Notes: generated by a model from the letters alone, not told the origin. DNA of 64,000 nucleotides from Trypanosoma brucei (GCA_000002445.1 CM000207.1:2944001-3008000), one strand, 5' to 3'; counted from the first letter of the stretch, positions 4,501 through 46,681 are shown. Translations and numbers: made by a program.

Positions 4501-5744
4501 CATCTGCTGAGGAGAATAAGCCTGACGTTTCTTTGCTAGATTTTGCGCTTTGTTGATATGATACGAAAGAAATGCAATTTTTTTACACAGTTCAACTTGG
4601 TCACTATGAACCGCTGTTTTTTGTCGCTGAATATAATATGCTACAAATTTGTAATTTAACGTCACGATTTGAGGTAAAAAAGCAGTCAGTTGAACCACAA
4701 TTTTTTCATTTTCAATAACAATCTATCTTGGTGTATATCTATGTCTCAAAACTTTGAAATTTATGGCTATCACTTTTCTTTGCCATTTTCTAATGTTCAG
4801 CTTTCGCTTTGACTAGGAATAAAAATATAACTTTGCGTTTTGTCGCGTACATGATTTTCCATTGCTCCTTGTTTTTTCAAGGTATTGTTTGTTTGTAGCG
4901 CATTTAGTAACGCCAGGCAATTTAGGTCACGAAAGTGTCTTCTTTTATGTTTTGACTTAAGTACTAAGGGGCAATTGCTGCACCTCAATAACCACTTTTA
5001 CATTGATGATCCGTTTATTGGAAGGTCTTTACGTCATACTAATATACCAAACGGAATTAAAGAAATGTTTCTTCTAATTTTTTCTCCTTCACGTAAAGCT
5101 TTTTTTCTTGTTAGATTTAAAACTTTCCTGTGGTTTATTACTTTTTATGTTCACAGTCATGCACTAGCAGTCCTAGTATTAAAATTCTTCTTCCAATAAT
5201 ATTATATTGATTCCCACAAATTTTCGATTATTATTACATCCAATAAGAAAAAGACATCAATAATATCTGACACTTACCCACTCGCTTTCTCCTTATGTTC
5301 TTTATTTACTGTTAAATATGAGGATAGTCCATCACACTAAAAACTACAGTTGCCGACATCGTCTCATTAGTGACATAAATACATTTGTGTGAAATAAAGG
5401 ACATTATTTCCTCTTGAATCGTTTATTTCTGTGTTTTTACAACCCATTTTGTTATTTTGTTTTGTACTTTCTTTTCTTATTGTCCTCTCTCACTATTGCT
5501 GCGTGTAACGTAGTTACTCTTGGTATGTACACTAAAGTTATTTTCTCAATCATTATCACCTCATTAACCTCCTTGTGCATAATTATGCCCGTCATAGTGT
5601 TTGTGCTTTAAAACTGCGCATATTCCACCTCTTTTATCCTATATTTCACTCCGCCACTGTCACACTCACTCACTTACTCCCATTACATTATTACCATTTT
5701 AAATTACTTCTATTTGTGCTTTGACTTTAGTCTTCACTCCGACA

Positions 5745-10860: not shown

Positions 10861-11744
10861 GTTTTGTGCGTTTCGCAAGCTGCTTTGGCAGCGTTTTAGT
10901 GTTTTGCCTGCGTTTTTTTTTACCTTTTTACAAAGGTTTAAGCTCACGTTGGAGACTACACTTGCTTATTGGTGCCTCTAATTTAGTGTCAGCGGTTTAT
11001 CGGTCTGTGTTTGCTGTCGTTGAAATAAATAAATATGCAAAAAAGTTATAAAAACACCAACGTGTGCCGATAAAAACGTATTAAATGCGTGAAAGCTTGC
11101 GATTTCAGCTGTAGCTCTTGCTTGGTATTTTTCTCCGACGCCGACTCAACACATTTGGTTTGGATGTTAGCATTTACTCGTTCTGAAAAACGAAGGTATA
11201 TGGACCTCGGTCTGCATAGCACTTTCTGCCCTCCGCCTTCAATAGCCTGCCGTTTCGCTACTTCAAACAACCCACACATCTGCCCTATAAAATGGCGCCC
11301 CCTGTCCTCAAAGTTTCTCATTAGGCTGGGACACCATAATAAAAATCACAATCACAACATCATCTCCTACATTGCATATTTCCATTTTTTTTTTGAAATA
11401 CGGCCCCAAAATCTCCCCCTGCTGCATAATTTTTGACTTCTCTGTATTGTCGCATACTACCTTCTTTCATTTCGTGTTTTACTTACCTTCCCTATTTTTC
11501 ATACCGCCACTTCTTCGAATAAATTAGAGCCTCCATTTGTCCTGTGCAGGTGAGTCTCTGGTCGAATTTCCCCTTCATCAACTCCTCGCGTATAATGATT
11601 CCCAACCTTATGTCTCTGTTTTAAACTGCGCATACTACAACTCCATCTCTTTCTTCACAATTACTTTCATTGTACCCTTCCCATTGTTTTAACTACTAAA
11701 CGTTACACCGTCTATTCTTTTATAACCACCACTTTTATTATTAT

Positions 11745-12420
<676 letters not shown>

Positions 12421-16414: not shown

Positions 16415-17687
16415 CCCAGCGATGCCGGCCACCTCAACGTGGTGCCAGGGTCCAGTACACCGTATCATCGGGGGAAGCCAAGAGCCAGCAGCGTTCCTTT
16501 CATGGGGAACACTGCTTTGCTCCGGCTACGGCATTATACAGAACAGGGATCAGCAGCGTCTTGCTGGGACACCGTCTTTCATTTGTCCGTCCCTGGGCAC
16601 GTGCCAGCGTGCCATCAGCAGTATCATCCGCACTAAGATGCTGCTGTCCGGTGATGTGGAAAAAAATCCCAGTCCGTCGTTGCGCGGGATGCAGTGGAAC
16701 TGCGCCGGGCTATCTCAAGGAAAGAGATTAGCACTCCACAAAACCCTTGTTGATGAGCGGATCGCCTTTTGTCTGTTGAGCGAGACAAGGATGACGCCTG
16801 GAGAGGCGGCTTGCTTTAGCGTTGCTGGCTACCAAAATCACGGAATAGCTCGTAACTGCAAATGAGGTGGTGTATCAATACTAGTGAGGGAGGACCTGCC
16901 AGTCGAGACCGGTATGGCCGTTGTTGGTCGCATTGAACAAGTGCATGCAACAATTCACCTTGCACGTGGAACGGCGCTGACTGTCACGTCGGCATACATC
17001 CCACCAAAACACACCTTCACGGCAACTGACCTAGATACGCTTCTGACGACTGACGGTGCCCAGCTCATCGGTGCAGACGCTAACGCACACGCGTTGGCAT
17101 GGGATCGCGCGAACCCACCAAATACCAAGGGTGAAACCCTCACACAGTGGTGCATTAACAACCAGTTTCTGGTCTGCAACACTGGTGAGTCCACCAGGTA
17201 CGCGCGCCACCACGGGGAGTCCACCCCTGATGTGACACTGTCAAGGAATTGCACAGTGTACACGTGGGCATCGCTGTATTCTCCCGATAGCGATCACCAT
17301 CACATATTTTTCGACGTTATCGTTGGAGACGACACAGATGCACTGAGTTGCCCGCGGCTTCGAAAGCCCATGTACGCATGGTTAAAAGCTAACTGGAGGA
17401 ATTTCCGTCTCAAGGTTGACGAGCTCTGCAGGAAAATTGGTAGAGAGAAGAACGTCAACACCCTGGAACAGAAATTAAGCTCCACTATCCGCACTGCGAC
17501 GAAGTTCTCCGTCCCCCGTGGCTGCAGAGCAACGCCACCACATTGGACACCTGAGCTCGCGAAACTCGATGAAGAGATCCCTGGATGCGGACCCTCCCAC
17601 CGAAGGGAAAAGTTGGTAGCCACGCGTAAGCAGATCCTGGACCGTACCACAAAAAAGAGGTGAAGCACTCTATGCTCCAGACTTGCG

Positions 17688-18665
17688 GTGTCAGACCGCT
17701 GCAGTTGGCACATTGTCAAGAAGGTATACGCGCCACGACCACTAACCACACCGGCTGTACTTGTTGATAACACGGCCATCACGGACTACCGTCAAGCTGA
17801 GATGTTCAGTAAACTGTACTCGTCTCAAGCAAGAAGGCATCCCGACTCACACCCACCATCACCCATAAAGACGACAGAGAGTGAGTTCAGTCCCATCACG
17901 ATGGCTGAACTACGGAGATCGATCAAACTGCTACCGAGTGGATCCGCAGCCGGACCTGATTGCTTATACAACGAGGCACTGCAACATCTCGGTAGAACAG
18001 CGCTGAATGTTGTTCTGAGGCTATTCAATGAGAGCCTACGAACGGGAGTCGTGCCGCCTGCATGGAAGACTGGTGTTATCATCCCCATCCTGAAGGCCGG
18101 AAAAAAGGCGGAGGACCTTGATTCTTACAGGCCTGTGACGCTCACGAGCTGTCTCTGCAAAGTCATGGAACGCATAATTGCCGCGAGGCTTAGAGATACT
18201 GTTGAGTCCCAGCTGACGCCGCAGCAATCAGGCTTTCGCCCCGGATGCTCAACACTCGAACAACTCCTGCAGGTCCGTGCTGCCCTTTGCCGCCCCACGC
18301 ATCAATCTCGTACGGGTGCTGTATTCGTTGACTACGAGAAGGCATTTGATGCAGTAGACCACGACAAAATTGCGAGGGAAATGCACAGAATGAAGGTATC
18401 ACACCACATTGTGAAGTGGTGCGTATCATCTCTGAGTAACCGAACTGGCAGAGTGAGATTCAAGGAGAAGCTTTCCAGAAGCAGAACATTTGAGCGAGGA
18501 GTGCCACAAGGAACTGTCCTTGGCCCAATCATGTTCATTATTGTCATGAACTCGTTGAGCCAACGCCTTGCAGAAGTGCCGTTACTGCAGCACAGATTCT
18601 TTGCAGACGACCTGAAGCTACTTGCGAGGCACACAGAGAGGGATGTCATCAACCACACACTATAG
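17688..18665 (+). pseudogene. ingi reverse-transcriptase domain ORF fragment.
   Basis: Carries reverse-transcriptase motifs (GFRPGCST, VFVDYEKAFD, FADD). It is flanked by out-of-frame endonuclease and RNase H pieces. Confidence 0.75.
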
Positions 18666-19386
18666 TGCGGCCTAAACGTGGTGTTACAGTTGTCAAAAGA
18701 GTACTTCATGTCTGTAAACGTAGCGAAAACAAAATGCACACTCTTCGGGTGTATAGAGCGCCACCCCCTTACATTACAACTGGACGGCGAAAGAATAGGA
18801 GCTGACAGGACACCACAGCTTCTAGGAGTAACATTCCAGTGTCTGCAAGGGATGGCAACACATGCAGCCGAAACGAGACGCAAGATGGACTTCCGACTAC
18901 TGCAGATAGCAGCCATCTCAGCTTCTACATGGGGGCCAAGACGACAAGTACTGAGAGCTTTTTACGTAGCACTCGTACAGGCACACACCATGTATGGCAT
19001 TGAGGTATGGTACTGGGACGCTTCGGAACGAAGTCGTGACCTCCTTGCATCAGCACAACACAAAGCCAGTTGAATCATAGCCGGCATACCGCATGGGACG
19101 CGCAAAGAGAACTCTCTGCTGCAAGCAAACCTCCTGCCACTCAAGACGACCACTCTTGTGCGCAGCATGAAATTCATGCTGATGTGTGAGTCACGAGGCG
19201 GATGTTTACGGCGCAGTGCTGAAGAAGTATACCACAGCAAACACCCAGTCAGAGTCTTACATTCCCGCATCATGCGGTCCTACCCCCACCTCCGCATTGA
19301 GCCACGCGAGCACCCACTAGAGACATCGACGCTCCGCCACAGCTGCCGACCGATATTTCACACGCAGATAAAGCCTGTGTCCGCTG

Positions 19387-19917
19387 ATGACCATGAAGAT
19401 GTCAAAAGGGAGGCTTCCGAAAAGTGGATTGAACGGCATTTTACACGGAGGGGGAAAGGAGCCACCGCGGCGAGAGCACTACGAATTGTGTACTGATGGA
19501 TCCGTGTCCCTCGGTGAGAAGTCCGGAGCAGCTACCCTGCTCTATAGAAACAACACGCTGATTTGTGCACCCAAAACGGGAGCAGGGGAACTCTCATGTA
19601 GTTACAGAGCGGAATGCGTAGCATTAGAGATAGGACTGCAACGGCTGCTGAAATGGCTTCCGGCATACAGAAGCACACTGAGCAGGTTGTCCATCTTCTC
19701 TGACTCGCTGTCAATGTTAACAGCACTGCAGACAGGCCCCCTAGCCGTGACGGACCCAATTCTGAGACGACTATGGAGGCTTCTGCTTCAACTTCAGAGA
19801 AGGAAGGTGCGCATCCGACTGCAATTTGTGTTTGGCCATTGTGGTGTGAAACGGAATGAGGTTTGTGACGAAATGGCCAAAAAGGCCGCAGATTTACCAC
19901 AGTTGCGAGACACATAG
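19387..19917 (+). pseudogene. ingi RNase H domain ORF fragment.
   Basis: CTDGSVSLGEKSGAATLL...SYRAECVALEIGL is an RNase H-like catalytic signature. Confidence 0.65.
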
Positions 19918-20285
19918 ATCCCCGACATCATTGCTTATGCGAAGCGAGTGCTTAGGTCGGAAGAAGTCCATGAGAACACTCATAGGTTTGGTATCACGGC
20001 AACCACTTTCCAACAAAACATAAAGAAGAACTGACGAGGGAAGAAGAAACAACAGTGGCACGCTTTCGGGTTGGGTTTTCAAGGCACTATGGATGGATGT
20101 TGCGAAAGATCAACCCGAGTGTGCCTCCACAGTGCCGATAGTGTAACCCGCAACATGCAGCGATAGGACCAACAATACAAACGGTCCCAACTGTTGCGAC
20201 ACGCACTCTTCAGAGAACCTCCGAACCGACCAAATGTACGGAATGCAATGCCACATACCAATGCCGGTCGAGTGCTGTAACGCAC

Positions 20286-21026
20286 ATGGTAAACAAACAC
20301 GGCTTTGTGCGAGCTGATGCCCTCCGGAGGATCAAATACGGCGATGCAAGACCTGCAGTGGATATCCCCCCGGAGCCCCCTCCAGTGGTGGCAATCGTTC
20401 CTTTACCATCGAGCACACGAGTCCCGATGAGACTGCAGGTGCTTCATTGTACCCTCTGTGCCTCCAAATTCGCAGTGCCAGGCCGACTATTACACCACCT
20501 TCAAACGATACATGGCATAGGCAGCGGTAGTTGCCGCGTGAAAAGGGGGCGAGAGAACGAGGACTCATTGCAAGGAGATGGTAGCGTCCCAGCAGCGCCA
20601 GCCCCTCAGGATACACGGAAGCTGCCATTTCAATGTGACCTGTGCGAGGCGAGCTTCGGTACACGTTCTTCCCTGTCACTACACAAGAAATTCAAACATA
20701 AGAGCATAGTGACGGAGGATGGTACCGTGGTGGTGGTGCAATTCCCCCGTAAGCGTGCCCGTGAGGGAAACGTTGACGTCCCGGGGAAAGGCGAGGTGCA
20801 GTGTGGTGTGTGCCAAAAAGTGCTCAGTTGCAGGGACACCCTCATCCGACACTGTAAAGCTTTCCACAAAGGTGAGGGAGTCGAGCTTAAATGCAGCAAA
20901 AGCACAAAACTGTGTGCCACTGATTCCCCGCATACAAACGCATCCATGTTGATGTGCCCACATGCGGAAGGCAGTGTGCTAGCAAAATTGGCCTCACCTT
21001 ACATCAAAAGAAGATGCACGGTATGA
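20286..21026 (+). pseudogene. ingi C-terminal C2H2 zinc-finger region ORF fragment.
   Basis: CTLCASKFAVPGRLLHHLQTIHG, FQCDLCEASFGTRSSLSLHKKFKHK and CGVCQKVLSCRDTLIRHCKAFHKG. Confidence 0.65.
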
Positions 21027-24769: not shown

Positions 24770-24865
24770 TTATGGATATTATTTATCGTCATAATAATAT
24801 GTATAATGATGATTATAGGAATGTGTTTTGAGTATGTAAATATACTAATATTATAATAAAAGTAT
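24770..24865 (+). repeat. 70-bp repeat, degenerate, plus orientation.
   Basis: ATAATAATATGTATAATGATGATTATAGGAATGTGTTTTGAGTATGTAAATATACTAATATTATAATAAAAG. Confidence 0.55.
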
Positions 24866-25764
24866 TTGTCAAGACTGAATTGACATGCCAAATTCACCCT
24901 TTTCAAACAATAACAACTGTGTAATGTAAGTAAGTGAGTGGTAAGGGGAGAACAAAGTTTAAAGAGGAAGTGAGAAGTATTGTTATTAAGGAAACTAAGA
25001 AGGAAGAAAATAGAAGAATAGGGAATGCTTCCGGCTTCAAACACTAGTATGACAATGGGCATCATCATGCACAAGATAATGGAGACAAAGAACCAAGTGT
25101 ACAAGGCAACTGCTGTATATAAGCTATTGATAACGGTAGAAGCAGTGTAAGAAAAAGCAGAACTCAGAGGGAATATAGTGCTTTAGGATGAGCTAATTAT
25201 GCCCGTATACCTATCAAACATGGATAGATGAGTGTGCATATATGGTGGTGAAGGCTATGGTTTTTAATTTTCTGGCGAGTAGAAAAATGAGGCAAAAAAG
25301 TGGGATAAGAACTTAATTAGTAGAGTCTTTATCATGTTTTTACATCGATGGCAGAGTAGAGACTGAGAAAGCTCGTAAATGACGCTCACATGTTGTTTTT
25401 GTTTGCTATTCATGTTAAATTACAAAATGAAAGTGGAACAACAGCACCATAGTGGCTAGCTAACGCACACCAAACAGACAATAACGTAGACTAATCTTTT
25501 ACACCGTGTTGCCTCGATCAACCATGAGTAAATAAGTCTGTAGAGGCACTCTGCAGGTATGCAAAGCTTGAAGGCAGTTTCATGGCAACAAAACAGAAGA
25601 TTTTGCAGATGCTCTGCATAAAAATGTGCAAATTAGTAAAATATATGTGTGAAAATGGCTTTTCAGTGCAAAGTTTACAGTGATACAGTATCAAAAATGA
25701 GTACTAATGTGAAAGTTTCTAATTTGGTTCATTTTCATCATCTTGTGGATATTTGTTAAGGCTA

Positions 25765-25835
25765 TAAAAGCGATAATAACAATGATAATGACAAGAGTGT
25801 GTGTGTATATACTAATATCATAATATAAGTACTGG
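25765..25835 (+). repeat. 70-bp repeat, plus orientation, about 2.1 kb upstream of the VSG at 27985.
   Basis: AATAACAATGATAATGACAAGAGTGTGTGTGTATATACTAATATCATAATATAAG. Confidence 0.6.
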
Positions 25836-26829
25836 AGAAAAGCGCATTGTCGACCAGTATAGAAGCACATAAACCAGTGGAAAGGGTGAAACGAGGGTAA
25901 GTGATTGAGTGGAGCAGGGACGTACTGAAAGGGAATGAGGCATATTGTCAAATGACACTAAGAAAGACAGAAAGAGAAGATAGAATATACATGGCTTCAA
26001 ACATAAAAATGACTATAGGCATTATCATACACGGGAGGATTATTGAGGAATAAAATGTGGAAAAGACAAAATCCGCTGTACATGAAAATTTGCGTTTCTA
26101 CGTTATTAGCAGTGGTAGAAGCGGAGATAGAAAACTGTAAAACACAGCATATAACAGAAGTAAATGATAGAGGAAAACAGATTATACACTCAAATTAACT
26201 CAACAATGGACAGATACCACTTCAATGATGGACATATAAACCACGGGGGAAGTAGTTGTGGAGCCTGCGCTATTGGAAATGCGTATTGAAAACGGACGGT
26301 TGTGCTATTTATCACAGGAAGATGGTAAGACCTTTAGTATATATAAAACAAACAGTAAAACTAGCTATCCCTATTCCCACATCAATATGTGGAGGTGAAA
26401 TATGAAGAATACAAGGAACATCAGAATACACGAGTAAATAGTAGTGGGTGTGTTTAAACATAACTTCTATAAAAAAAAGTATATTACTACTCAAATAAAG
26501 GCTTTAGATACTACGCACACGCACTATTCAGCAACTACATTATTACAATATAAAGAAAATAGTCATATATGCAAGCACTATGGTACAACAAATGATTTAT
26601 TTTGTAATTTTTCTTACATTTCCTTATAGCAATTTCAAACTTTATTAGTATGTTAGGAGAATAAAATTTGTATTTTGAGAACTTCAATATTACCATTGAT
26701 ATTGCATTTAACCTGATTAAGCTCAATATCTTTGCAAGGTAATAAAATAAATAGCATGACAAATATAAGACAGAACGTTCCTAAGAAGACTAGAGTCTTC
26801 GTGGTTTTAGTTCAAACTCATGCAACTGA

Positions 26830-27580
26830 AGGATAGTGTAAGCTCATATTAAGTGCCAAACTAAAGCATGTTGAAATTATTACAATTACTATGGGAGGTT
26901 TGTATACTCATGTCAGGCGGCCTAGATGGGTTATGGAATTTTTAGAGAAACAGAATGCAAGTGATGAGGATATTGTAATTCACTTGTATGGATCTGATGT
27001 TATTGTTTTTGATCGTGATAAATATGAAAATGCTGTAGAATATTTCATTCATTAAAACATCTGAGTGTTATGGTCCACACTTAGAGTTAAATATGAATTT
27101 GTAGCATAGGGAACATGTGGAGAGATGCTATTGGTTTTTTAATGTTGGACAAATAAAAGATAAAAAGTTAACTCATTTACTGAAGTCTTATCCTAGTGGC
27201 AGACATTATATTAGTTGCGGTGGTTTGATAGCGAGAGTATGGGCATTTAACAAATTTGAATACGCATTTGGAGAGTTACTAAAAGGTAATGATGAATGAT
27301 TGTCAGATCAACGTATTTACAAACCGTTGCTAATATGGAGTGCAATTCAAGAAGAAGCTGTTGGACAGAGATTCGTTTTGAAGAGAAAATTAATTGGATT
27401 GTATTATGATAAGAGATTATTCTCCATTCCCAATAGTGGTGAAATTGGAGAAGCATCATTCATTCATTTTTCAGGTCAGCCAATTGCATGGGAGGAAAAA
27501 GCTAAGTTAATTGTTAAAAATCTTACTTGGTATAACGAATTGGAATTAAGGTGGTTTGGTACAAGACATTTGTAGAAATA
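26830..27580 (+). pseudogene. Conserved non-VSG gene fragment, copy A, frame-disrupted. It is paralogous to 42091-42849 and may be ESAG3-related (unverified).
   Basis: Reading across frames gives ...VQTHATEG.CKLILSAKLKHVEIITITMGGLYTHVRRPRWVMEFLEKQNASDEDIVIHLYGSDVIVFDRDKYENAVEYFIH, then ARVWAFNKFEYAFGELLKGNDE, then PLLIWSAIQEEAVGQRFVLKRKLIGLYYDKRLFSIPNSGEIGEASFIHFSGQPIAWEEKAKLIVKNLTWY. This is roughly 75% identical to copy B at the protein level. The homology extends about 130 bp upstream (AAGCTCAATATCT...AGTTCAAACTCATGCAACT). Confidence 0.5.
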
Positions 27581-27876
27581 AAAGCTTGTTTGATACATGA
27601 GATGAAATGGGAATTTCAACTTTCGAGTATTTGTTGCAAATTCAGCATACAAGAAGATCTAAATAGTACGACCAAAAGATAGGCGGTATCAAGGCAAAAA
27701 AGTAGAAAATATGTCTGTGGAGCACCCTTCTAGTTTGATAGCTCTGTGCTATTTGCAGTACGGAGGGAAGTTCTTCGGACATATAGAGATGACCACAACC
27801 GGAGCAGAGTGAGAACACAACCAACTTTACAACAAACAATTACGACGGCACCTCAACAACGCAGCAGCAATATACT

Positions 27877-29436
27877 ATGATTCGCCCTTTATCCGAAGTC
27901 GAACTTGTAATTCCTTTAATGCAAAAGTTATTTTTAAATACTTTGGCGGCAACTTCACACAAAAGAAAGGTATACAAACAGACTATGCTTGGCCATGTCT
28001 TATCAATAGTGCTAATAGCCGCTTTACGGTTGGCAGACGGAGCCGCTGATGATAACGCAGCGGTACATCAATTCATGTGTAGGCTAACAGCGCTAGCGGC
28101 GACACCCGTAGAACCACCGGCGATAGAAACAAACACTGATTGGGTGATGACGACACTCGAGCAGTTAAACGCTTCGACCACCGACACCAAGTGGCAGGCA
28201 ATGTTTGACACATCAGAAGCTAACACAAAAGGCGAACAATTCCCAGAAATTAGACCAGCAGTGCAGCACAAGAAAGAATGGAAGGAAGCTTGGCCTCTCT
28301 GGTGGAGATCGTTCCAAGCCGCGAGGGCGGCAAAAATAAACTCCGATGAAAACAAAGACTACAAACGTATCTCCGACAAACAACAGCTTGCAGCACTACA
28401 CTCATTAGTCGAAACGCTAGCAGCGGAGGCGGCAACAGTAAACACAAAGTATCTAGCAGCCAAAACCAAAGCGACGGTAACAGAAAAGGAAACAGCCCAA
28501 AACGCACTAACTGCGGCACTCTATGGCGGCGATGGCACACAGTCAACAGTCGCGCGGCCAGCCACCATTGCCGCGGGCAGTACTTACACAGCAGTCTGCG
28601 GCAAAGCGGCAAAGGGCAAGAGTCTCATAAGAGATTTCTTCTGCCTTTGCAATGCGGCGGTAGCATCCCAGAAAGTATGTACAGATGCCTACTCAGGAGC
28701 CGACTGGGGCGGATCAGTAACAGCAACGAACCTAGAGTGGACGGCCCTAAAACGGACATGCCCGGCAACAGAAGCTGAGCAAGCGACTCCGGAACTCATT
28801 CAGGAGTTCCTAGCCGCTTTTACAGCGACCCTGACGCAGAAATCAAGCGGCAGCGAACTGTATGTCAGGCTGGGAAAATCAGAGGACCACACGTGCGACG
28901 GCACCAGCAACAAAGTTTGCGTAGACTACAGCGAGCACTTTAAGAAAAACTCTGGAAAAGGGATTCAAGCGATAGCATGGTTCAAAAAATTGCAGGAAGC
29001 AGCCACAGCCCTGCGTCGCATGTATTCAGCGGCCCAATTAGCAGAAGCCTATGCTACACAATTGATTGCATACAAAACGAACGCTGATGCAGCATATGAA
29101 GCGGCAATAGCAGGAAAACTTGTCAGAGCAGCAGAAGCAGCCAACCAAGCAAGTAAGGACAAAACCACGGTAAGCCCGGCAGCAGACTCAAACTGTGCAC
29201 AATACAGGGCAAACAAGACTTGCACAGAAAATGACTGCAAATGGGATAGCACTAAAGAGACAACAGGAAAATACTGCAAACCTAAAGATGGAGAAGGACA
29301 GACAAACACAGCAGTAGGAACAGGAGAGGCACCAAATGCAGAAGGCAAAAAGTGCTCCGAAAAAAAACTGGGTCCGACTGCAAAGATGGTTGCAAATGAG
29401 ATGGAAAAGAGTTCAAAGATTACAGTTTTGGAATAA
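27877..29436 (+). CDS. VSG: VSG, b-type, with an intact N-terminal domain, a C-terminal frameshift and no stop after the GPI signal.
   Basis: A 519-aa ORF whose probable start is M37 at 27985 (MLGHVLSIVLIAALRLADGAADD). The CTD has CAQYRANKTCTENDCKWDSTKE and KKCSEKK. The canonical end ...CKDGCK.DGKEFKDYSFGITKKLALAAVSPVALAAFSLF is in another frame from about 29370. Confidence 0.8.
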   Translation: MIRPLSEVELVIPLMQKLFLNTLAATSHKRKVYKQTMLGHVLSIVLIAALRLADGAADDNAAVHQFMCRLTALAATPVEPPAIETNTDWVMTTLEQLNASTTDTKWQAMFDTSEANTKGEQFPEIRPAVQHKKEWKEAWPLWWRSFQAARAAKINSDENKDYKRISDKQQLAALHSLVETLAAEAATVNTKYLAAKTKATVTEKETAQNALTAALYGGDGTQSTVARPATIAAGSTYTAVCGKAAKGKSLIRDFFCLCNAAVASQKVCTDAYSGADWGGSVTATNLEWTALKRTCPATEAEQATPELIQEFLAAFTATLTQKSSGSELYVRLGKSEDHTCDGTSNKVCVDYSEHFKKNSGKGIQAIAWFKKLQEAATALRRMYSAAQLAEAYATQLIAYKTNADAAYEAAIAGKLVRAAEAANQASKDKTTVSPAADSNCAQYRANKTCTENDCKWDSTKETTGKYCKPKDGEGQTNTAVGTGEAPNAEGKKCSEKKLGPTAKMVANEMEKSSKITVLE

Positions 29437-29795: not shown

Positions 29796-31206
29796 TAGTG
29801 AAGACTAAGTGGGATGCGAAAATTTAAGCACTTAAATAACTGCAAGTGTGAAATAAGAGTAAATGAGCGAGTGAAAGTGGTAAAGAGCACGAGTAAAATT
29901 ATTATATGAGATGGAATATGCGCAGTTTGAAACACAAACTTAACAATGTACATCATTATGCTCTTGAAATTGATTCAGTAGATAACGAGGGAAAGACAAA
30001 GTGTGGTGTACTGGACAATTTTAGTTGCTAAGTTATCTGTAGAAACAATGAAAGAATACGAAAAGAAAGGAAATGAAAAAATACGAAAAGAAAGGAAATG
30101 AAAAAATACAAAGTGAAACAGCAGAGCACGCGGCAGGAAAGCTGAAAAGAGAATAAGAAATATGAAGATTTTTATACAAAGTTCACACCGAAGTTGTTAG
30201 ATAGCGCTGCAGAAATTGTGTAACATGTATTTTTTATCTTATAGCAGTTGCGAATATGCAGTTATTAAGTATGAAAGGTGTTATATGGAGAAGCAGGAAG
30301 AAGGGATTATATAAGTGTATGGTAATGTCTATTTCTTTCTGTCATAACTTATCGTATTGATGGCTAACACTTGTGGTAAATGACAAAAGATTACTGGAAG
30401 GGTTTTTAAAGAGGGGACCATCAATATACTACTGTGAACTGAAATGGAATTGTAAAAACGCAGAATCCACATAAAATAGCGCATGCATCGAGAGGCAGAG
30501 GATATTTGTATGACCTTGAGAAAGTTTTAGATGGTACACGTCCCTTAATGACACGATGGACAGACGTTGAGCCCATTCAAGGGACGAGTAATTTGCATAA
30601 GAATACACGGTGAGGTGACATTGGTTGAGCAAATCGTAGAAATTCATTCGAGAGAGTGCATTCATGTCTCAAATTTACGAGTATGAGCACGAAGCAGCAG
30701 CGATTGATGACAAACAGAGCAAAAAAGGAGGGTATGTGACCAACAGAAGCCAAAACTCTATTTCTCCGTGCTGTCGTAAGCAGGTCCCCTGGGCAAACAA
30801 AGAAAATGGATTAGAAAAAACAAACACTGGCGTTTTAGATAGACGTTGCGTATGTTTTATGGAAACGAAAGGTTTGAATAAGAACGACACTACTCCCAGA
30901 TGAAATAAGCGTCCACCGTAGTGACACAGAATTCAGCAAGCGAATGGAGAATTTAGAATTATATACCGTCTGTCGAGAAAAACAGCTTAAAAATGTATTA
31001 ATGTTAGCACCGTGGAGGTCTCGTATGTTTTTCCCGGCAGAAACTGGACGCCAAATGATTTATAATTAAAACAACAAACACCACACTCGGCGTAAGTAAC
31101 TATAAACTAACCAAACTGACAGAAAACAGACCTTGCAAGCACCCAGATACAACAAACCTATAGTGTCCAAGAAAGCAAATTCTCATCTTTGTAGCAACTT
31201 ACGTCG

Positions 31207-32676
31207 ATGGACTACAAAGACTGCTATGGCTACTTAGCAGCACTGACCTTTGTAGTATCTTTGTGCTCAGGCGCTCCACTAACAGACAACGACCCTGTAG
31301 CCGAGCAGATATCAGACCTGTGCAAAGAGAAGTTTTACGTGGAAACACTCATCCAAAATCTCAAGCAAAGAGTGCAAAGCACCGCGGCCTCAATCAAAGA
31401 CATGGAGAAGCTGAAAGCAACATGGGAAAAAGCAGCAGCCGCCACATCTGATGCCGCAAAAAAATGCCTATTCAGCGCACTGGAACACAAAGCCGATGCG
31501 GAACTATTGAGGGAACTGCCAAAGATAGAAGAAGCAACAGAAGCGGTGACAACAGCTCAAATAGCATTGTCCGAGCATGTGGGGATGCTAGGAGCCACCA
31601 TAACTTTGGCAAAAACTAAGCTCGACAGCGGCAGCAGTAACCACGGCAACGCCGGCACAGGTTCAATCAGAATAGCACTCTCTAGAACAACCGCAACAAC
31701 AGACCTCTGCAACGAACCCGCGACTATATCGGATATCAAACCTGGAGTGTCGGAAATTCAACCAGACAAACTGTTCAAACTTAAACTAACCAAACCAACA
31801 GATCTGCACAAGCACATGTTCGTCGACTGGCTAACGATCGGAGGACTAACGAGCTGCACGGCGCACACATCTTACGACCAAAACTTCGACGCCGCCCTCA
31901 GTGGCTGCAACTACAAAACGGCAGCCACAGCGGAGGCTAAACAAGCCACAACCAAGCCGACCTACGGCACCACAGAGGTCACGCTATTCAAAAATAACGA
32001 CCCAGAACAGCAATGCGAAGTAACAGATCTACCAGCTGGAGGAGCCGCAGACAAACACAAAAAACTACAACATTCACTGTGCCGAGCGTTGCAATTAGGC
32101 AATGTCAACGGACGGTCGCTGCGACAACTAAACGGCGCGGCACTACAAAGTGACCATGTTGTTGCCAACACAATCAGAAACTGCGACCCAGTCTTCCAAA
32201 AACTAACGACAGCCACAGATGGCGAAGGGACAACTGAGTTAAAAAAATACATCAAAGAAGCATATGGAAGCTCTGCAAGCGAGTTCGCTGAGAAGTTCAT
32301 TACAAACGCGGAAAAACTACAAATGACGTTGCGCTTAAATGATAAAATAGAAACAAAGGATTTGAGTGCTGTTTCACCAGGTGAACAAACCGCAGCAGCT
32401 CTGAGTCATATACAGGGACTACATAACAAAAGGGAACTTGAAGCAGGAAAAAAGAGTACAAGCGCTGCGGCGGTTGATCCACAAAAATCAGAGGACTGCA
32501 AGGGAGAAAAGGACGAAACTAAATGCAACAAAAAAGATGGGTGTGAATTCAAAGACGGGGAGTGCTTAGCTAAAGTGACAACAGCAGCAGGGACAGATGG
32601 TAAAACAAACACCACAGGAAGCAATTCTTTTGTCATTCATAAGACCCCTCTTTTGCATGTATGTTTGCTGCTATAA
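31207..32676 (+). CDS. VSG: VSG, a-type, apparently fully intact, with signal peptide, N-terminal domain, CTD, GPI signal and stop.
   Basis: A 489-aa ORF that begins MDYKDCYGYLAALTFVVSLCSGAP and ends ...EDCKGEKDETKCNKKDGCEFKDGECLAKV...GSNSFVIHKTPLLHVCLLL*. There are no internal stops or frameshifts. Confidence 0.85.
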   Translation: MDYKDCYGYLAALTFVVSLCSGAPLTDNDPVAEQISDLCKEKFYVETLIQNLKQRVQSTAASIKDMEKLKATWEKAAAATSDAAKKCLFSALEHKADAELLRELPKIEEATEAVTTAQIALSEHVGMLGATITLAKTKLDSGSSNHGNAGTGSIRIALSRTTATTDLCNEPATISDIKPGVSEIQPDKLFKLKLTKPTDLHKHMFVDWLTIGGLTSCTAHTSYDQNFDAALSGCNYKTAATAEAKQATTKPTYGTTEVTLFKNNDPEQQCEVTDLPAGGAADKHKKLQHSLCRALQLGNVNGRSLRQLNGAALQSDHVVANTIRNCDPVFQKLTTATDGEGTTELKKYIKEAYGSSASEFAEKFITNAEKLQMTLRLNDKIETKDLSAVSPGEQTAAALSHIQGLHNKRELEAGKKSTSAAAVDPQKSEDCKGEKDETKCNKKDGCEFKDGECLAKVTTAAGTDGKTNTTGSNSFVIHKTPLLHVCLLL

Positions 32677-37712: not shown

Positions 37713-39406
37713 CACTATATGGAGGGGGAAAATAGAATGATTTTATACAATGGAAGTGGTGAAATGGAAGTAAGTAATTAAGCAAGTGAGTAAAATGATA
37801 GGACTAATATTATCAACGTAAACGCAAATTGGTAAGGAGAGAAGAATATGAAATGTTCTCGCGTTGAAACACAAAAATGACGATGAACATCATCATATAC
37901 AAGGAGATAGTTGGGGAGAAATTTCTGGAGACACAGTTTAGAGTACACGCTTAACAGAGTCACTACGCATTCGCAGAAACAAAAGAAAGTGGCTGAAAAG
38001 GAAACAAAATACGTAATGAAACAACGGAATTAACGAGTGTACAGTGCAGAAAATTCAGCAGGTGAAGGACGCACAATGTGTAAGTAAGTTCATGCTGCAT
38101 GTGATCGGACTGCAGCAACAAAGTTGAGCCCAAGCGATTAGCTTACGATTGCTGGTGGCACCGCGAAGCATTGTAGTACCAGTACGAAATGCAGTCCAAA
38201 TATGGCTGAGTGGAAGAATGGATCAAAAGTAAAAATGAAAGCAGCAAAAAAGTGTTATTGTATCACAAGACTGTGTCGAAACAAGGAGAGATAGTGATTT
38301 CTACACGAAGCGAAATTGGGAAATTTATTACACAAAACAGATATTTTCTTCTTTTTATAGAGTCAAGCACGTAAAATTATGAAAATACAACCTTAAAGAA
38401 AAATTTAGTAGACAAGCAGCGTCTGAGCTTTAAAGAGTGCAATCGAATTTACCTTAGCATACAGATCGTGTGATAGTTAACCTCTTTCCATAATCATTTC
38501 ATTCTCCTTTACAGCTTTCCGTATTGATAGACTTGAATTGAAGCAATGATACCCTGGTCAGGGGGAGTTGAAAAAGGCGGTGAGGTTGCATTTGCAAACC
38601 ACTAAACGTATATAAGGTAACACAAGTATTATATTACCAGGCTTTCTGGTACAGATAAGTCATTCGTAGGAAGAAAAAAAGAACAGCAAAGCACACAAAA
38701 ATGTTGGAGGCTAATCTGTTAGTAAGCTTGGCCCCCTCAATAGCACGGGGATGTGCGAAAAATAAAAAAAGGGAAATCGTTGAATTGTGTGCATGCGGAA
38801 CAACTAGACTTTACTCAAAGTTTGGTAAGTGTAAAAGGCCAGCCTAGGAAAGAACTTGTATATAAAGACATGTTACTAGCAATCTGTTGAACAAAAACGC
38901 TACTAAAGTAAGCTCAACCAGCTTATGTCTGTCATATGATAATTAGAAACAAGTTTCATGAGCATAAGACCAGAAAGTGACACTTAGCCAACACAAAGAG
39001 AAAACGCAACCACCTTTATGTGTGTGCACAGTCTTTTAATGCTTCCAGAAGTCTCCACTAAGATCTTTATGTGCGATGCAGGTCAACGCGCACGCCGTCT
39101 TACGCCATACTATCATACTGTTTTTGGCAGGACCACTAAGGGAAAGCATCTTGCTGGGCGTCTAGCCAGGAAGTGATTAAAGGAACAGACAAAGCAACAA
39201 ATATGAACACGAAAGCCGCTGCATAATTCGGCCGGTGCTAAGCACAAAGGCCGACGACAAGCGCTGACCAACTAACGAGGAAGTAGCTAACACGATAGAC
39301 TCAGGAACGCCAAGGTAGACCTCTATTTTCGCGTTCCAATGAAACGGCTCTACTTTCGGTTTCTCACCTCCAAAAAACAGGTAGTAACAACGGACCAAAG
39401 CTCAGA

Positions 39407-40800: not shown

Positions 40801-41042
40801 TGAGTTTGGTATCATTTTGAGGAATTTTGCTGAATTTTATAAATTTTTCTAAATCCATAAACTTCACATCTTAACATTTTTTATGAAATGCGCAAGTTGG
40901 TGAAAATTAGTAAAAAAATTGAAATTTTAAAATATGAAAATTTGGTAACATGTACATAATAGTGGCCTATGGGAGTTAAATAGTAGTGCGATAGGGTACG
41001 AAAAATGAGTGATGTTCTAACTTTATAAATTTGTTTATTTTA

Positions 41043-41135
41043 ATGATATTAGTTAGTGTTATGATGATAATGATAATAATTATGATGATTATAGGAGTAT
41101 CTTGTGAGCATGTGTTCGCTGATAATCATATTAAG
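41043..41135 (+). repeat. 70-bp repeat, degenerate, plus orientation.
   Basis: GATATTAGTTAGTGTTATGATGATAATGATAATAATTATGATGATTATAGGAGTATCTTGTGAGCATGTGTTCGCTGATAATCATATTAAG. Confidence 0.6.
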
Positions 41136-42090
41136 ATCGATGGTGAAAAGAAATGTATGGGAAAATACAAAAAATTCAAACAATGGGAATGGTACATTGT
41201 GAGACAGTGACTAATTAAGTAAAAAAGCTGGATGGTGAGTAAGAGGAGGGGTGAGAGAAAGGAAGAGGAACACTATCGAACGAAACGCAGTAAGATAGAG
41301 AAATAGAGATAGAATATGCGCTGTTTCAAACACAAACATGACGATGGGCATCATGAAACACAAGGAGATAATGAAGTGAACAACCATGAAGAGAAAAAGT
41401 CCGGCGTCGATTCTAACTGAAGTCGCTGCATCATCTTCAGCAGCGTAATATAGCAGAAAATGGCACATCAGAAGGAACAAATGAGCTCTTGCCTTTTGCT
41501 AAAAAATATATAGGTATTGCAGTGATAACCCCAAAAACGACAGTAGCAGTAGTTCGTAAAGCCACGCTGATTTCCGTCTCATGACATGGAAGGCAGTTGA
41601 GTTATTCAGAAGAGGAATATAGTAAAACTCGTAGTATATATAATCCATGAACAGCGGGCAGCTACTTTAATTACCGTAAATATACACAAAGAGAAATGGG
41701 AATATTGCAAGTAACAGTGGGATAAACGGAGTTTACGCCACTAGGTATGACTAAAGAAAAATTCTAAAATGAAAATCACCGATCCATGCCAAAGGGCAAG
41801 CTTCAAACGCTACAGTTACACCAATGAACTGTTATAACATAAGAATATTAAAGCATTATATGTATGAAAACACTTTTCTCAATAAACGACTTCATGTCGT
41901 AACCAACTTATTTTCGTACAGTTTCTAAGTTTTTCTGTATAATCTTCTCAAACTTTAAAGGTAGAATACCTAACGACATTTGCTATTTTAGTAGTTTTTT
42001 GCATCTGTTGCAATTATTGTATTTAAGCTCAATATCTCTTGAAGAGAAACAACTGCAAATATAACACAAAATTCTCCTAAGAATCCCAGA

Positions 42091-42849
42091 GTGTTTGTTG
42101 TTGCAGTTCAAACTCATGCAACTCAAGGATGGTGTGGGCACATAATGAGTGCCAAACTAAGCTATGTTAATATTAATACAATTGAAATGGGAGATTTGTA
42201 TAGTCATGTTAAAAGGCCTAGATGGGTTATGGAATTTTTAGAAAGGCAGAATACAAGTGATGAGGATATTGTCACTAATTTGGATGGGTCTAATGTTATT
42301 GTTGCTGAGAAAGAGAAGTATGAAAATGCAGTAGAATATTTTATACAAAAAAGTGCAGAAAACGAAGATAAGTTCAGTGAAGAGCATATTTACAAAGAGC
42401 ACATGGAGAGATGCTACTAGTTTTTTAATATTGGTAACAGAAAAAAAGAGGATAAGAAACTACCGCATTTACTGAAATCGCCTCCTAGTGGAAAACCCTA
42501 TCCTAGTGGTGGTGGTTTGATAGCGAGAGTATGGGCATTTAGAAATTTTGAATATGCATTTGGAGAGTTACTGAAATGGAGCGATGAGTGGTGGTCGGAA
42601 CAGAGTATCTACAAACCGTTGTTAATATGGAGTGCAGTTTGGGAAGAGGCTGTGGGGCAGAGATTTGTCTTGAGAAGAGAAATGATTGGATTGGATTATG
42701 AAAAGAAATTTTTTACTATTCCACATGGTGGTGAAATTGGAGAAGACCCATTCATTCATTTTCCTGGTCAGCCAATTGCATGGCAGGAAAAAACGATATT
42801 AATTGTTAAAAATCTTACTTGGCATAAAAAGTTTAAAGGAAAGGAGTAG
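42091..42849 (+). pseudogene. Conserved non-VSG gene fragment, copy B, in two ORF pieces. It is paralogous to 26830-27580 and may be ESAG3-related (unverified).
   Basis: ORFs 42091-42420 and 42517-42849 read ...VQTHATQGWCGHIMSAKLSYVNINTIEMGDLYSHVKRPRWVMEFLERQNTSDEDIVTNLDGSNVIVAEKEKYENAVEYFIQ and ARVWAFRNFEYAFGELLKWSDE...PLLIWSAVWEEAVGQRFVLRREMIGLDYEKKFFTIPHGGEIGEDPFIHFPGQPIAWQEKTILIVKNLTW. An in-frame stop lies upstream of the first piece. Confidence 0.5.
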
Positions 42850-43325
42850 TACGAAATACTTGTGTAAGATTGAGAGTTACGCTGTTGGTGGAGAAAAACA
42901 GGATTTTGAATGCTGGAATATTTGTGACAATTAATTTAAAGAAAGGGAGTTATTTGAGGCGGTAAAGCTGTGAAAAATGCAAGCATGCCATACGAGATTC
43001 AAATAATTCCACGCATTCTTGTGTTAACTTCTTTTCCTAATATTTCCCAAGAGATAACAGAAAAATTCCAATTGACATCCCTCAGTAGTGGAGACTTGTG
43101 AACAGCACCGCCAGGTTTCTTAGAAAATGTAAATGACGAGCGATATTTATACTTTGTTAACTCGCTTTCACGACGCCAGGGGCTCTTCAATACGGTGATG
43201 GTCACAAAACATCAAACATAGATTTATCAGGCTCACAGCATGGTATTTAACGTGGTGATAGCTTCTCCGTTAAATCAACCTCCATTTTCGAAAACTAGTG
43301 AAGACAAATCAAACCAGCGATACAA

Positions 43326-44927
43326 ATGCAGCGTCTAGCATTAGCGCTACTTGTTATTATCGGACCAAAACTGGCAGCCGGCGAAAACATGGTGTATGGA
43401 GAAAACAGAGCTGAACACGCAGCGCTTTGTGCTTTCATACGAATGGCAGACCGCGCCGTCGCAGTCCCAACCGTTGAGCCGCTCGACAAGGACGACTATA
43501 ATTACATACAGGAGCTTAATTTCACTCTTTCACCAGCCGAATGGCAGGCAAAATTCTACAAAGAGGCAGAGCGCAAAACAGTGCACGACAACGCTGACTC
43601 TGCCGGTATAAAAGACGCAGATGAAGCTGAGTTTTGGGATGACTGGAAAGCAGCAGCCGAAGCACTGAAACAAGGCGAAGACAACCAGAAGGTCAAACAG
43701 GCTGTGACTCCAGAACTGACAAAAACGGCAAAGCAGCTGGCGGCCGTCCAGCTAGCAGCAATAGCGCTAGAAGTGAAGCAGTTACTAAAGAGGTACCCAA
43801 ATGTAAACCCAGAAGCAGCTAAATATCAATCGGCTTCGCCTACAGCAGCCATAATGGCAGCAGCGCTAGGGCAAGGAGATGCGAAAGCAACCAACATAGA
43901 CGCAAGCAAGCCGTTTTCAGCCACGGTGTCAGGAAACCGGCAAACCGTGTGCGAAGTCAAAACAAGCGGCGTGCGACCAGCGACGGCACTGGCGACACTA
44001 ACATGCATCTGCCACAAGGACAACGGCAACCCGGTAACAGACGGCGCTTGCACCGAAAAAGCCGAAGCAAGCACGGCTTGGACATCATCGGCAACACCAC
44101 CGGATAGCAGCGACTACCAGAAACTAGCAAAATCGTGCGGCGCGCCACCGCAAGAACCAATAACGACAACCGAACTTGAACACGCGATAGCCACCGTCAG
44201 GGCGCTGATCCATACGGACGGGACAAACGGCTACCTAGGGGCATTCAGAGGCACTGACTGCAGTGGGGCGTCCAACAGCGGCATGTGCATCAAATTCACA
44301 GGGCTAGTAGCAAGCCCGGAAAAAGAAAACGAACTTCAGTGGCTAACAACAATAAAAACAATAGCAACCAATCTAAAACACCTCGAGCAAGCCAAAGCTG
44401 CAGCCGCCACAGCGGCAATTAGCCATTCCAGAGCTTTGGCAGCAGCAATGGATAAGCTGTCGACAAAATTCAGTGATTCGGTGGAAACAGCCATCAACGT
44501 TCGATGCGAGACACACAACAAGTCCAAGACGGAATGCCTAGGAGCTAAATGTAAATGGGGTGGCAAAAAGGAGGATGACGGTCCATGCACTCCAACCGAA
44601 GACCAAGTTGCAGAACAACCAGCCCGATCAACCGAAACAGAAGGTGCACCAAAAGAGGGGGCAGCTGCAACTGGATGTGCAAGACACGGAGATGACAAGA
44701 CGGCCTGTGAAAATGACAAAACAGGCGATAAGCAAAATTGTGCATGGAGAATAGGCAAAGATAATGAAGATGACAAGGAGAAAGAAAAATTCCGCTCTTC
44801 CAGCTTCCTCCTAAACAAACAATTGGCTCTGAGTATGGTTGCTGAATTTGTGAGTTTAATAGCATCTCAAAATCTTAAAATTATAAGAGTTTTGCTCATT
44901 TTTATGAAAATTATGAATATTAGTTAG
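43326..44927 (+). CDS. VSG: VSG with an intact ORF but no stop after the GPI signal (read-through) and no 3'UTR 16-mer.
   Basis: A 533-aa ORF with signal peptide MQRLALALLVIIGPKLAAGE and a CTD containing CETHNKSKTECLGAKCKWGGKKEDDGPC and CENDKTGDKQNCAW. The tail ...FRSSSFLLNKQLALSMVAEFVSLIA continues as SQNLKIIRVLLIFMKIMNIS and runs directly into the 70-bp repeat. Confidence 0.8.
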   Translation: MQRLALALLVIIGPKLAAGENMVYGENRAEHAALCAFIRMADRAVAVPTVEPLDKDDYNYIQELNFTLSPAEWQAKFYKEAERKTVHDNADSAGIKDADEAEFWDDWKAAAEALKQGEDNQKVKQAVTPELTKTAKQLAAVQLAAIALEVKQLLKRYPNVNPEAAKYQSASPTAAIMAAALGQGDAKATNIDASKPFSATVSGNRQTVCEVKTSGVRPATALATLTCICHKDNGNPVTDGACTEKAEASTAWTSSATPPDSSDYQKLAKSCGAPPQEPITTTELEHAIATVRALIHTDGTNGYLGAFRGTDCSGASNSGMCIKFTGLVASPEKENELQWLTTIKTIATNLKHLEQAKAAAATAAISHSRALAAAMDKLSTKFSDSVETAINVRCETHNKSKTECLGAKCKWGGKKEDDGPCTPTEDQVAEQPARSTETEGAPKEGAAATGCARHGDDKTACENDKTGDKQNCAWRIGKDNEDDKEKEKFRSSSFLLNKQLALSMVAEFVSLIASQNLKIIRVLLIFMKIMNIS

Positions 44928-45010
44928 AATTCTAATGGTAATAACAATAATAATAATAGGAGTGTGTTGTGAGTGTGTATATGCGAATATCATAATAATA
45001 GTTATGGTGA
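44916..45010 (+). repeat. 70-bp repeat, plus orientation, overlapping the end of the ORF at 43326-44927.
   Basis: AATATTAGTTAGAATTCTAATGGTAATAACAATAATAATAATAGGAGTGTGTTGTGAGTGTGTATATGCGAATATCATAATAATAG. Confidence 0.75.
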
Positions 45011-46681
45011 AGAGTGAATGATTAAAAAAATCCCTTGAAACAATGGAAAGAGTGCAATTATAAAAGGTATGGCAATTAGTATTGAAGTAGACGGAGATAA
45101 AATAACGTAGTTTCAAACACAAACTTAATGATGGGTATCACCATGCAGAAGAAGATGGTGGTGGAAATAAGGGAAAGCTATAGTCCAATGTATGGGCCAA
45201 GTGGATGTCTGTGATGACAAAAATACTCAAGATAGAAAACAACAGACGACGAAATACAATATACTGTGGAAGATTGAAGTACGGAAGAGCACAGCAGAGA
45301 AGAAAATGATACAGGAGAAAATGATCCTCTGAATTTCGTACGGTAATAGGTTGATGCCATTGCAACGGACGGTGGTGGCGACTTTTGTTTTTAATTATAT
45401 TTCAGATTATAATGCTCAGCGGTAAAGAAACAGAAGGAGCTGGAAGAAGGAATTGGTAAGTGTGAAGTAATATTGAACTCTTCTTCTCTTAATATATAGT
45501 AATATTTGCTAAAATATGTGGAAAACAGTATGACATTATAGAAGTGCAAAACTTGGATTCCCAATATACATTGGTGGAAAGAACAATCATAAATTCACTG
45601 TAACCGCTTAACCTAGTGTATGAATAAGTATTTAGAGAAGGTTTATAATGTGGAAAAATAGATGATGATATTCATCCAATTCTGCATTTTTTTACTGGAC
45701 AGACATTAAGATCTCCCAAGATACAAATGCTCAGTACCAGCACGAAGAACAATCCTCACCAATGAAGGCAATGAAGATGTGGAAGGAAACAAAATTGTTG
45801 AAGAGAGGGATAAAACTACAAAATAGTTAATGGAAACATCATAAAAAGAGCCAGTGGTAGAAGGAGTCTCAGAAAATTCCATGGACAAGGCATAAACACG
45901 AATATTTTATTGTTAGTGACATAACATGCTCCATGGAGGAATTAACCTGCACTAACACAGACTACAAGACATAAAGTTTTAATTTCAAGCAATAGAAAAT
46001 ATGTGTGATATTTGAAAAAAAACTACGTGACAGAAATGAGTAACAAATAGATACAATAGATGTAGACTGATATATAATTTTAAATTATATCGGAGACTTG
46101 TTGAAGTACAAGATTTAGGTCATTGTAGAGCTTCTGTAATATGGCTTTCTATATTTATCTTGACTTATGTGGTTAACCCTTGTTGGCAGCAAAGAGGACT
46201 AAACATATAGTTTTTGGTTTCGAAGAGCTGTAGCAGATGCAGGCCGCCTTTATTTAACATAGACGTTGATCTTTTAAAAGATCTTAATATTTCTATTTTT
46301 GCCGTTGCAAACAGCAGTAACGCTTCATACAACCCTAAATGTTGAAATGTTAAATTTGTTATATTTAAGTATTTGATGGAACCTTAGCTTTGCGAACACT
46401 GTAAATATCTGTTTGTACGGTTTGGTAAATGGAAAACATGGCCATTTGTTTCCTATGTCTTCCCTGGCAATTTTCCAAGGTTAAACCTTTGTTTTTCCAC
46501 GATATTTAGTTACATGTGACTCATTTGATAAGAGTAACGGAGCAGATGTTGACTTTCTTGTTTATAAAGAACGGTGTTGATATCCTTTCAAAGGGAGCCT
46601 CCTAGATTCCCTATATAATATTTTTACACTTTTTGCAAGTGCACTTTAAACTTTATTATTTTGTTATAGCAAAAAAAAACT

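Follow-up and report, generated by a model that had tools for sequence, protein, structure and literature searches.

ESAG3 of Trypanosoma brucei is described as glucosylating class-B VSGs, and six of the 15 expression sites of strain Lister 427 are without an intact copy of it. The enzyme has just been identified as a Mn2+-dependent, UDP-glucose-specific, retaining O-glucosyltransferase of the GT-A type that is needed for the O-glucosylation of VSG3; its catalytic residues are D110 and D113 (the DXXD motif), G215-G216, W242, E244/Q245 and H297, and the D110N and W242A enzymes are inactive (preprint 10.64898/2026.01.27.701950). Decayed subtelomeric copies of ESAG3, and pseudogenes (psi) of it downstream of 70-bp repeats, have already been published (PMC2567434, PMC6152948, PMC3871602). 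For example, in Lister 427 the bloodstream expression site (BES) BES7 carries an "ESAG3 psi 3' of 70-bp repeat" and BES15 an ESAG3 psi, and both belong to the small number of sites in which additional sequence separates the VSG from the 70-bp array (Hertz-Fowler et al. 2008, PMC2567434). In this study, two ESAG3 pseudogenes were analyzed in a 64-kb window (CM000207.1:2944001-3008000) that is part of the annotated reference genome of T. b. brucei TREU927. All coordinates are positions within this window; copy A occupies 26660-27626 and copy B 41973-42973, both on the plus strand. The kind of finding is already known: the published subtelomeric pseudogenes, a class described in TREU927, belong to the same family, the same VSG-array compartment and the same decayed state, and nothing essential differs. 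Given the BES7/BES15 precedent, the location between 70-bp repeat and VSG that the original prediction had emphasized is not new either. The additions are descriptive, and comprise exact cassette placement, a common offset of ~830 nt, spacer homology, frame-specific past constraint, independent inactivation and the loss of DXXD residues. Their value is modest, amounting to a correct annotation for two passengers of a VSG array in the reference genome, and the current understanding of antigenic variation is unchanged by them; with ESAG3 now identified as a VSG O-glucosyltransferase, however, its many subtelomeric copies gain in relevance, as regards both their history and their distribution.

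With a probability of roughly 0.85, the two copies are ESAG3 pseudogenes in the co-transposed regions of VSG cassettes that derive from one ancestral block, were constrained for a long time, were inactivated independently and have the potential to travel as passengers. The assignment to ESAG3 comes from a search of 5.8 billion proteins, which gave one significant match, a 90%-identity cluster of expression-site ESAG3 (E 1.7e-129). This cluster has 15 members, namely the ESAG3 proteins encoded in bloodstream expression sites of T. brucei (CAQ57xxx and others) and those from T. b. gambiense; the name of its representative, "variable surface glycoprotein", is a legacy GenBank label. The copies are 63-68% identical in amino acids (aa) to expression-site ESAG3, as against 25-28% to chromosome-internal ESAG3-like genes and likewise to relatives in T. 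vivax and T. conorhini (exhaustive HMMER search). A Pfam search with both conceptual translations returned no family, only one chance match of 0.13, and no VSG domain; since Pfam is without an ESAG3 model, this null result is not evidence against the assignment. On their sequences, both segments are members of ESAG3 proper (Fam53, the T. brucei expansion), as pseudogenes and not as functional genes, and the earlier guess at ESAG3 was correct.

Compared with expression-site ESAG3 (CAQ57304, AAA63784; 368 aa), the copies are homologous over essentially the whole length and have the motif set in common. Both keep the signal-peptide region, G215-G216, Q245 and H297, but they are without a start codon, contain stops, frameshifts and deletions, and carry D110Y or D113N. 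Both are found in a silent array, downstream of a 70-bp repeat, whereas canonical ESAG3 is telomeric and upstream of the repeat; moreover, the expression-site genes are >90% identical among themselves, and the window copies are far more divergent. The chromosome-internal ESAG3-like or GRESAG3 genes (EAN78344, EAN78345) belong to the same GT-A superfamily, in which D110, D113, W59 and C162 are invariant. Unlike the copies, these genes are intact, encode ~390-410 aa, reside in chromosome cores and are conserved in other trypanosomatids.

The extents of the copies were set by tblastn with expression-site ESAG3. Copy A is near full length (residues 1 to ~348) and matches in two parts, residues 2-131 at 26663-27052 (frame +2, E 2e-50) and residues ~145/154-332/348 at 27015/27042-27626 (frame +3, E 6e-80); colinearity with copy B suggests that its decayed sequence continues to about 27680. 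Copy B is full length (residues 1-368), with residues 33-326 at 42052-42846 (frame +1, E 2.5e-133) and residues 328-368 at 42848-42970 (frame +2, E 2e-05), followed directly by a retained TGA stop at 42971-42973. In six-frame translation, copy B reads nearly all in one frame with one internal stop, and copy A is interrupted by several stops and requires a switch of frame. No further ESAG3-like sequence beyond these two was found by tblastn over the whole window. The copies are 77.3% identical in nucleotides over 828 columns (26717-27535 versus 42023-42827; blastn E about 6e-179), the sole long similarity between the two cassettes, and their whole-copy aa identity is 65-66%. The original prediction had described them as frame-disrupted fragments of about 250 aa, ~75% identical in protein, with ~130 bp of additional similarity upstream. 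The shared coding stretch is real, the disruption of frame was seen in both copies by translation, tblastn and alignment, and the protein motifs listed are present in both, with one slip (copy A reads ARVWAFNKFEY, not ARVWAFxNFEY). The upstream similarity is also real and corresponds to the N-terminal coding part of ESAG3 (signal peptide, residues 1-45). The identity was overstated, being 70% over 220 aligned residues (frame-corrected, 26830-27580 versus 42091-42849), and the description as 250-aa fragments does not hold, as the true extents are larger and the copies are near-complete gene relics.

Both relics lie among silent VSG cassettes. The window is a VSG array, in which neighbouring open reading frames (ORFs) have VSG_B or A-type (Trypan_glycop) domains, a 16-mer of the VSG 3' untranslated region (3'UTR) recurs throughout, and 70-bp units head most cassettes. 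The 70-bp units, whose consensus is a TAA/TGA-rich tract plus a GTTGTGAGTGTGTATATACGAATATTATAATAAG core, were located with an nhmmer profile built from seven window copies. A search for the core with up to three mismatches missed the units upstream of both copies, and the window-derived profile detected them. Each is a single, degenerate unit on the plus strand: that of cassette A is at 25755-25834 (E 9.9e-10, 34 bits; it also matches other 70-bp units by blastn), and that of cassette B, the weakest confident unit, at 41042-41138 (E 3.8e-06, 22.7 bits). Spacer A (25835-26659, plus strand) and spacer B (41139-41972, plus strand) follow, each with a generic post-70-bp element (25956-26032 and 41288-41379, respectively), so that the ESAG3 relics begin 825 nt (A) and 834 nt (B) past the 70-bp unit. 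They are on the VSG strand, and about 300-350 nt separate their ends from the start codons of the VSGs (27985 or 27877; 43326). Between 70-bp unit and VSG, these two cassettes have ~2.15-2.19 kb of DNA and five others in the window ~1.1-1.7 kb, which indicates that the relic adds ~1 kb to an otherwise ordinary spacer. The predicted location between 70-bp repeat and VSG was thus confirmed, with profile-found units upstream and Pfam VSG_B ORFs downstream on the same strand. A decayed expression site was considered for this arrangement and rejected: there is no space for, or trace of, ESAG2, ESAG11 or ESAG1 between the ESAG3 pseudogene and the VSG, and the 70-bp unit lies to the wrong side of the pseudogene.

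The lesions are numerous in both copies. In copy A the start codon is changed from ATG to AAT (26660-26662), and stops occur at 26714 (TGA), 26834 (TAG, at W59), 27102 (TAG) and 27297 (TGA, at W241), with more past 27572; a frameshifting deletion of ~22 codons lies near 27040-27055 (residues ~132-153), and the catalytic region carries D110>Y, W242>L and E244>D besides the W241 stop. DNA alignment with copy A shows ACG in place of the start codon of copy B (41973-41975), and 7 nt missing from its signal-peptide region. Copy B also has an in-frame deletion of 29 codons (residues 146-174) at ~42391, which removes the invariant C162 and Y163, a TAG at 42418 (W184), another stop at 42932, a frameshift at ~42847 (near residue 327), and D113>N. 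D110 and D113 are invariant across a 22-sequence family alignment, and each copy has lost one of these DXXD aspartates, so that neither keeps the catalytic set (DXXD, W242, E244/Q245, H297); nor does either retain an intact ORF of ~368 codons with start codon and signal peptide. Both copies are dead and unable to make the enzyme, because the start codon, one invariant DXXD aspartate and, through at least five stops, frameshifts or deletions each, the reading frame have been lost. No lesion is common to A and B: 0/6 stops are shared, the internal deletions differ, and so do the start-codon mutations.

The comparison of the two cassettes suggests one old module of 70-bp unit, spacer and ESAG3 that was long constrained and then decayed twice. 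Spacers A and B are mutual best matches among the twelve spacers in the window, with a global alignment score of 90 versus 18 or less for the others and a shuffled baseline of 3.4 +/- 2. The alignment of the cassettes is colinear, with few gaps, from the 70-bp unit to ~150 nt beyond ESAG3; the flanks reach a nucleotide identity of 45-58% (chance 28%) and the gene one of 77-85%, and the ungapped spacers are 46% identical over 180 nt, where 28% is expected by chance. This mutual best match, together with colinear homology from the 70-bp unit past ESAG3, argues for a common origin. Within the gene, the ratio of nonsynonymous to synonymous divergence (dN/dS) between A and B is 0.29 (bootstrap 0.20-0.44), with 55/41/89 differences at the three codon positions; in a comparison of frames, the true frame gave 0.36 and two wrong-frame controls gave 0.88 and 0.99. 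Thus, one ancestral block (70-bp unit, ~830-nt spacer and ESAG3) may have been duplicated long ago, and the VSGs behind it would later have been exchanged or have diverged past recognition. The ESAG3 frame would have been under purifying selection for most of the time since the duplication, in lineages that were once functional subtelomeric or telomeric genes, and copies A and B would then have been inactivated separately, as the absence of any common lesion indicates. Past constraint followed by separate decay would mean that ESAG3 lineages outside the expression sites were long functional. Many ESAG3-related genes outside the expression sites are intact (preprint 10.64898/2026.01.27.701950), and this, together with transcripts from some subtelomeric ESAG3 genes (PMC2771046), makes such long-lived functional lineages plausible. 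A recent segmental duplication of whole cassettes was rejected, because only ESAG3 and weak spacer homology are in common and the VSGs are 23% identical.

The relics are flanked by the two boundaries of recombination, the 70-bp unit upstream and the 3' end of the VSG downstream. A duplicative transposition with its start in the 70-bp unit and its end within or beyond the VSG would therefore carry the ESAG3 relic along to an expression site as a passive passenger. Such hitchhiking with 70-bp-initiated conversion is plausible and has published precedent. BES7 (VSG 427-3) and BES15 have their ESAG3 psi between the 70-bp repeats and the VSG, like copies A and B, and this is the arrangement expected if a cassette such as A or B were copied to an expression site; the two differ from the window cassettes in being telomeric expression sites of another strain. 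A fixed place in the co-transposed region would therefore be a simple source for the ESAG3 pseudogenes found 3' of the 70-bp repeats in some expression sites.

Several points weigh against this combined picture of common descent, past constraint and passenger potential. Copies A and B and the BES clade are about equidistant (~65% aa identity), so that sisterhood of A and B is not demonstrable, and the spacers show weak homology (about 46-58%), part of which the alignment itself selected. The ESAG3-proximal part of the spacer could be the gene's own upstream region, brought in by two separate insertions, and the low dN/dS could stem from past gene-conversion patches donated by functional ESAG3 instead of selection in situ. 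On the side of transfer, a sequence comparison of the two downstream VSGs with those of BES7 and BES15 found no close relation and no direct link. Each cassette has one weak 70-bp unit only, and the 3' ends of the VSGs are defective (no 16-mer; GPI signal, that is, the glycosylphosphatidylinositol signal, out of frame or read through). Weak 70-bp units and defective VSG ends would make these cassettes poor donors, and transposition of a whole cassette may be rare or may never occur.

Two alternatives bear directly on the shared history, and each is considered unlikely. The first assumes two independent arrivals, in which ESAG3 with a few hundred upstream bases was inserted or converted separately into unrelated VSG cassettes and the equal offset reflects a preferred junction. 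The equidistance of A, B and the BES ESAG3 and the 23% identity of the downstream VSGs fit such a history; in addition, ESAG3 is the only ESAG for which expression-site (ES) and non-ES copies do not form separate monophyletic groups (PMC3605285), and it reportedly moves by transposition between subtelomeric and telomeric locations (PMC3605285, PMC6152948). However, the offsets are nearly equal, colinear homology runs across the whole spacer, including the part that adjoins the 70-bp unit, and the gaps from ESAG3 to VSG are similar in length, all of which speaks for arrival as one block. The second, which we likewise regard as improbable, is concerted evolution: functional ESAG3 would have repeatedly converted the copies, keeping the coding region conserved and dN/dS below 1, and the copies would never have been selected in place. 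ESAG3 copies often recombine with one another, and in expression sites the breakpoints fall at ESAG3 loci (PMC2567434); the contrast between a gene body with 77-85% identity and flanks with 45-58% is also what conversion would leave. Yet neither copy has long tracts near-identical to BES ESAG3, and the identity is fairly even (63-68%); as the BES genes are >90% identical among themselves, recent conversion would stand out.

A bolder extension of the constrained-block reading is that 70-bp unit, spacer, ESAG3 and VSG together formed a mobile module, old and at one time under selection, by which a class-B VSG was moved along with a gene for its own O-glucosyltransferase. We consider this very improbable. 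If it were true, duplicative transposition would deliver an antigen and its modifying enzyme to the expression site together, the frame-specific dN/dS of ~0.3 would be a footprint of past function, and intact examples might persist elsewhere in the archive. A specific tie between ESAG3 pseudogenes and O-glycosylatable VSGs was looked for and gave no signal; the cysteine-flanked Ser/Thr loop present in both downstream VSGs is generic to class B, and class B is the majority of VSGs in the window.

It is also hard to credit that the copies still function, whether as a truncated protein that is still expressed, as a regulatory RNA, or as a homology tract under selection for directing recombination with the ESAG3 of expression sites. 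Array data show transcription of some subtelomeric ESAG3 genes (PMC2771046), and a speculation by Hertz-Fowler et al. gives ESAG3 loci a role in orienting expression sites for exchange (PMC2567434). Against this, the start codon is absent, the longest open stretch is far below the length of a GT-A domain, DXXD residues are gone in both copies, residues invariant in the family have been lost or deleted, and an aa identity of ~65-70% to BES ESAG3 implies that the DNA identity, too, is probably low for homologous recombination to be efficient. That the similarity is a low-complexity artefact, or a match to a VSG-internal segment, as the original prediction had allowed, can be dismissed, given E ~1e-178 by blastn between the copies, E 1.7e-129 to ESAG3, translations free of VSG Pfam domains, and a third-position-biased divergence found only in the ESAG3 frame.

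The fold of the parent family was examined with an AlphaFold2 model of ESAG3, built on the 22-sequence family alignment. A sequence search of the PDB gave no match, and a fold search was needed for this reason. The model (pLDDT 82, pTM 0.82) was compared with solved structures by Foldseek, and the best match was the glucosyltransferase domain of human LH3/PLOD3 (E 4e-9, probability 1.0), followed by mimivirus R699, UGGT and glycogenin. The parent family is, by this model, of the GT-A Rossmann-like fold, in agreement with the cryo-EM structure of the preprint (10.64898/2026.01.27.701950). The idea of a nucleotide-diphospho-sugar transferase, which had been put forward for testing, was right at the level of the family by both the fold match and the preprint. 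The LH3/PLOD3 domain (PDB 6FXR, 6TEU), the closest solved fold, is likewise GT-A with a DxxD Mn2+ site; it differs from ESAG3 in sequence (~16% identity) and in its substrate, collagen hydroxylysine, and the likeness concerns the parent family, not the dead copies.

The VSGs downstream of the two copies are both of class B and are 23% identical to each other; in Lister 427, the genes closest to them are VSG-313 and VSG-473, both from the archive. The VSG behind copy A (27877-29436, plus strand; Pfam VSG_B E 7e-62) is a 519-aa ORF with an N-terminal extension of 36 codons before the likely signal peptide, so that the true start is likely M37 at 27985. Its hydrophobic C-terminal GPI signal is out of frame, just past the stop, and the gene, though its ORF is "intact", is probably a defective VSG; it is 82% identical to Lister 427 VSG-473. 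The VSG behind copy B (43326-44927, plus strand; VSG_B E 3e-76, C-terminal domain E 2e-25) matches EAN77439/XP_827769 of TREU927 at 100% identity over 533 aa; the annotation there is "VSG, atypical". Its ORF runs ~20 codons beyond the usual end of the GPI signal, the normal stop having been lost; the 3'UTR 16-mer is absent after it, and the 70-bp unit of the next cassette (44907-45008) starts within the end of the ORF.

Other features of the array were also recorded. Just upstream of copy A lies an "empty" cassette (24777-25834), in which a 70-bp unit at 24777-24864 is followed ~890 nt on by a second unit, that of cassette A (25755-25834), with the VSG absent between them; a short conserved element stands after each unit (25012-25084 and 25956-26032). 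The same element of ~50-80 nt (75-84% identity) occurs 86-150 nt past most 70-bp units regardless of VSG, with copies at 25956-26032, 41288-41379, 29908-29956, 37840-37903 and 45094-45156, and on the minus strand at 5556-5635 and 57201-57251. A minus-strand cassette contains a perfect (TTA)159 tract of 478 bp (11851-12328) that adjoins 70-bp units at 11725-11895 and 12318-12409; here the TAA-rich part of the repeat has expanded to an unusual length without interruption. The divergent strand-switch region between the two arms of the array is occupied by an ingi-type non-long-terminal-repeat retrotransposon (~16884-21026, plus strand) with a GC content of about 0.5 and ORF fragments for endonuclease, reverse transcriptase, RNase H and zinc finger, and a separate reverse-transcriptase fragment lies at 50206-50814 (plus strand). 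Finally, an intact ORF of 489 aa at 31207-32676 (plus strand) occupies a normal VSG slot, with a 70-bp unit 1.4 kb upstream, and gave no Pfam VSG match at E<=1. It has a signal peptide and a typical GPI-signal tail (SNSFVIHKTPLLHVCLLL); together with its slot, these features point to a divergent VSG missed by the Pfam models.

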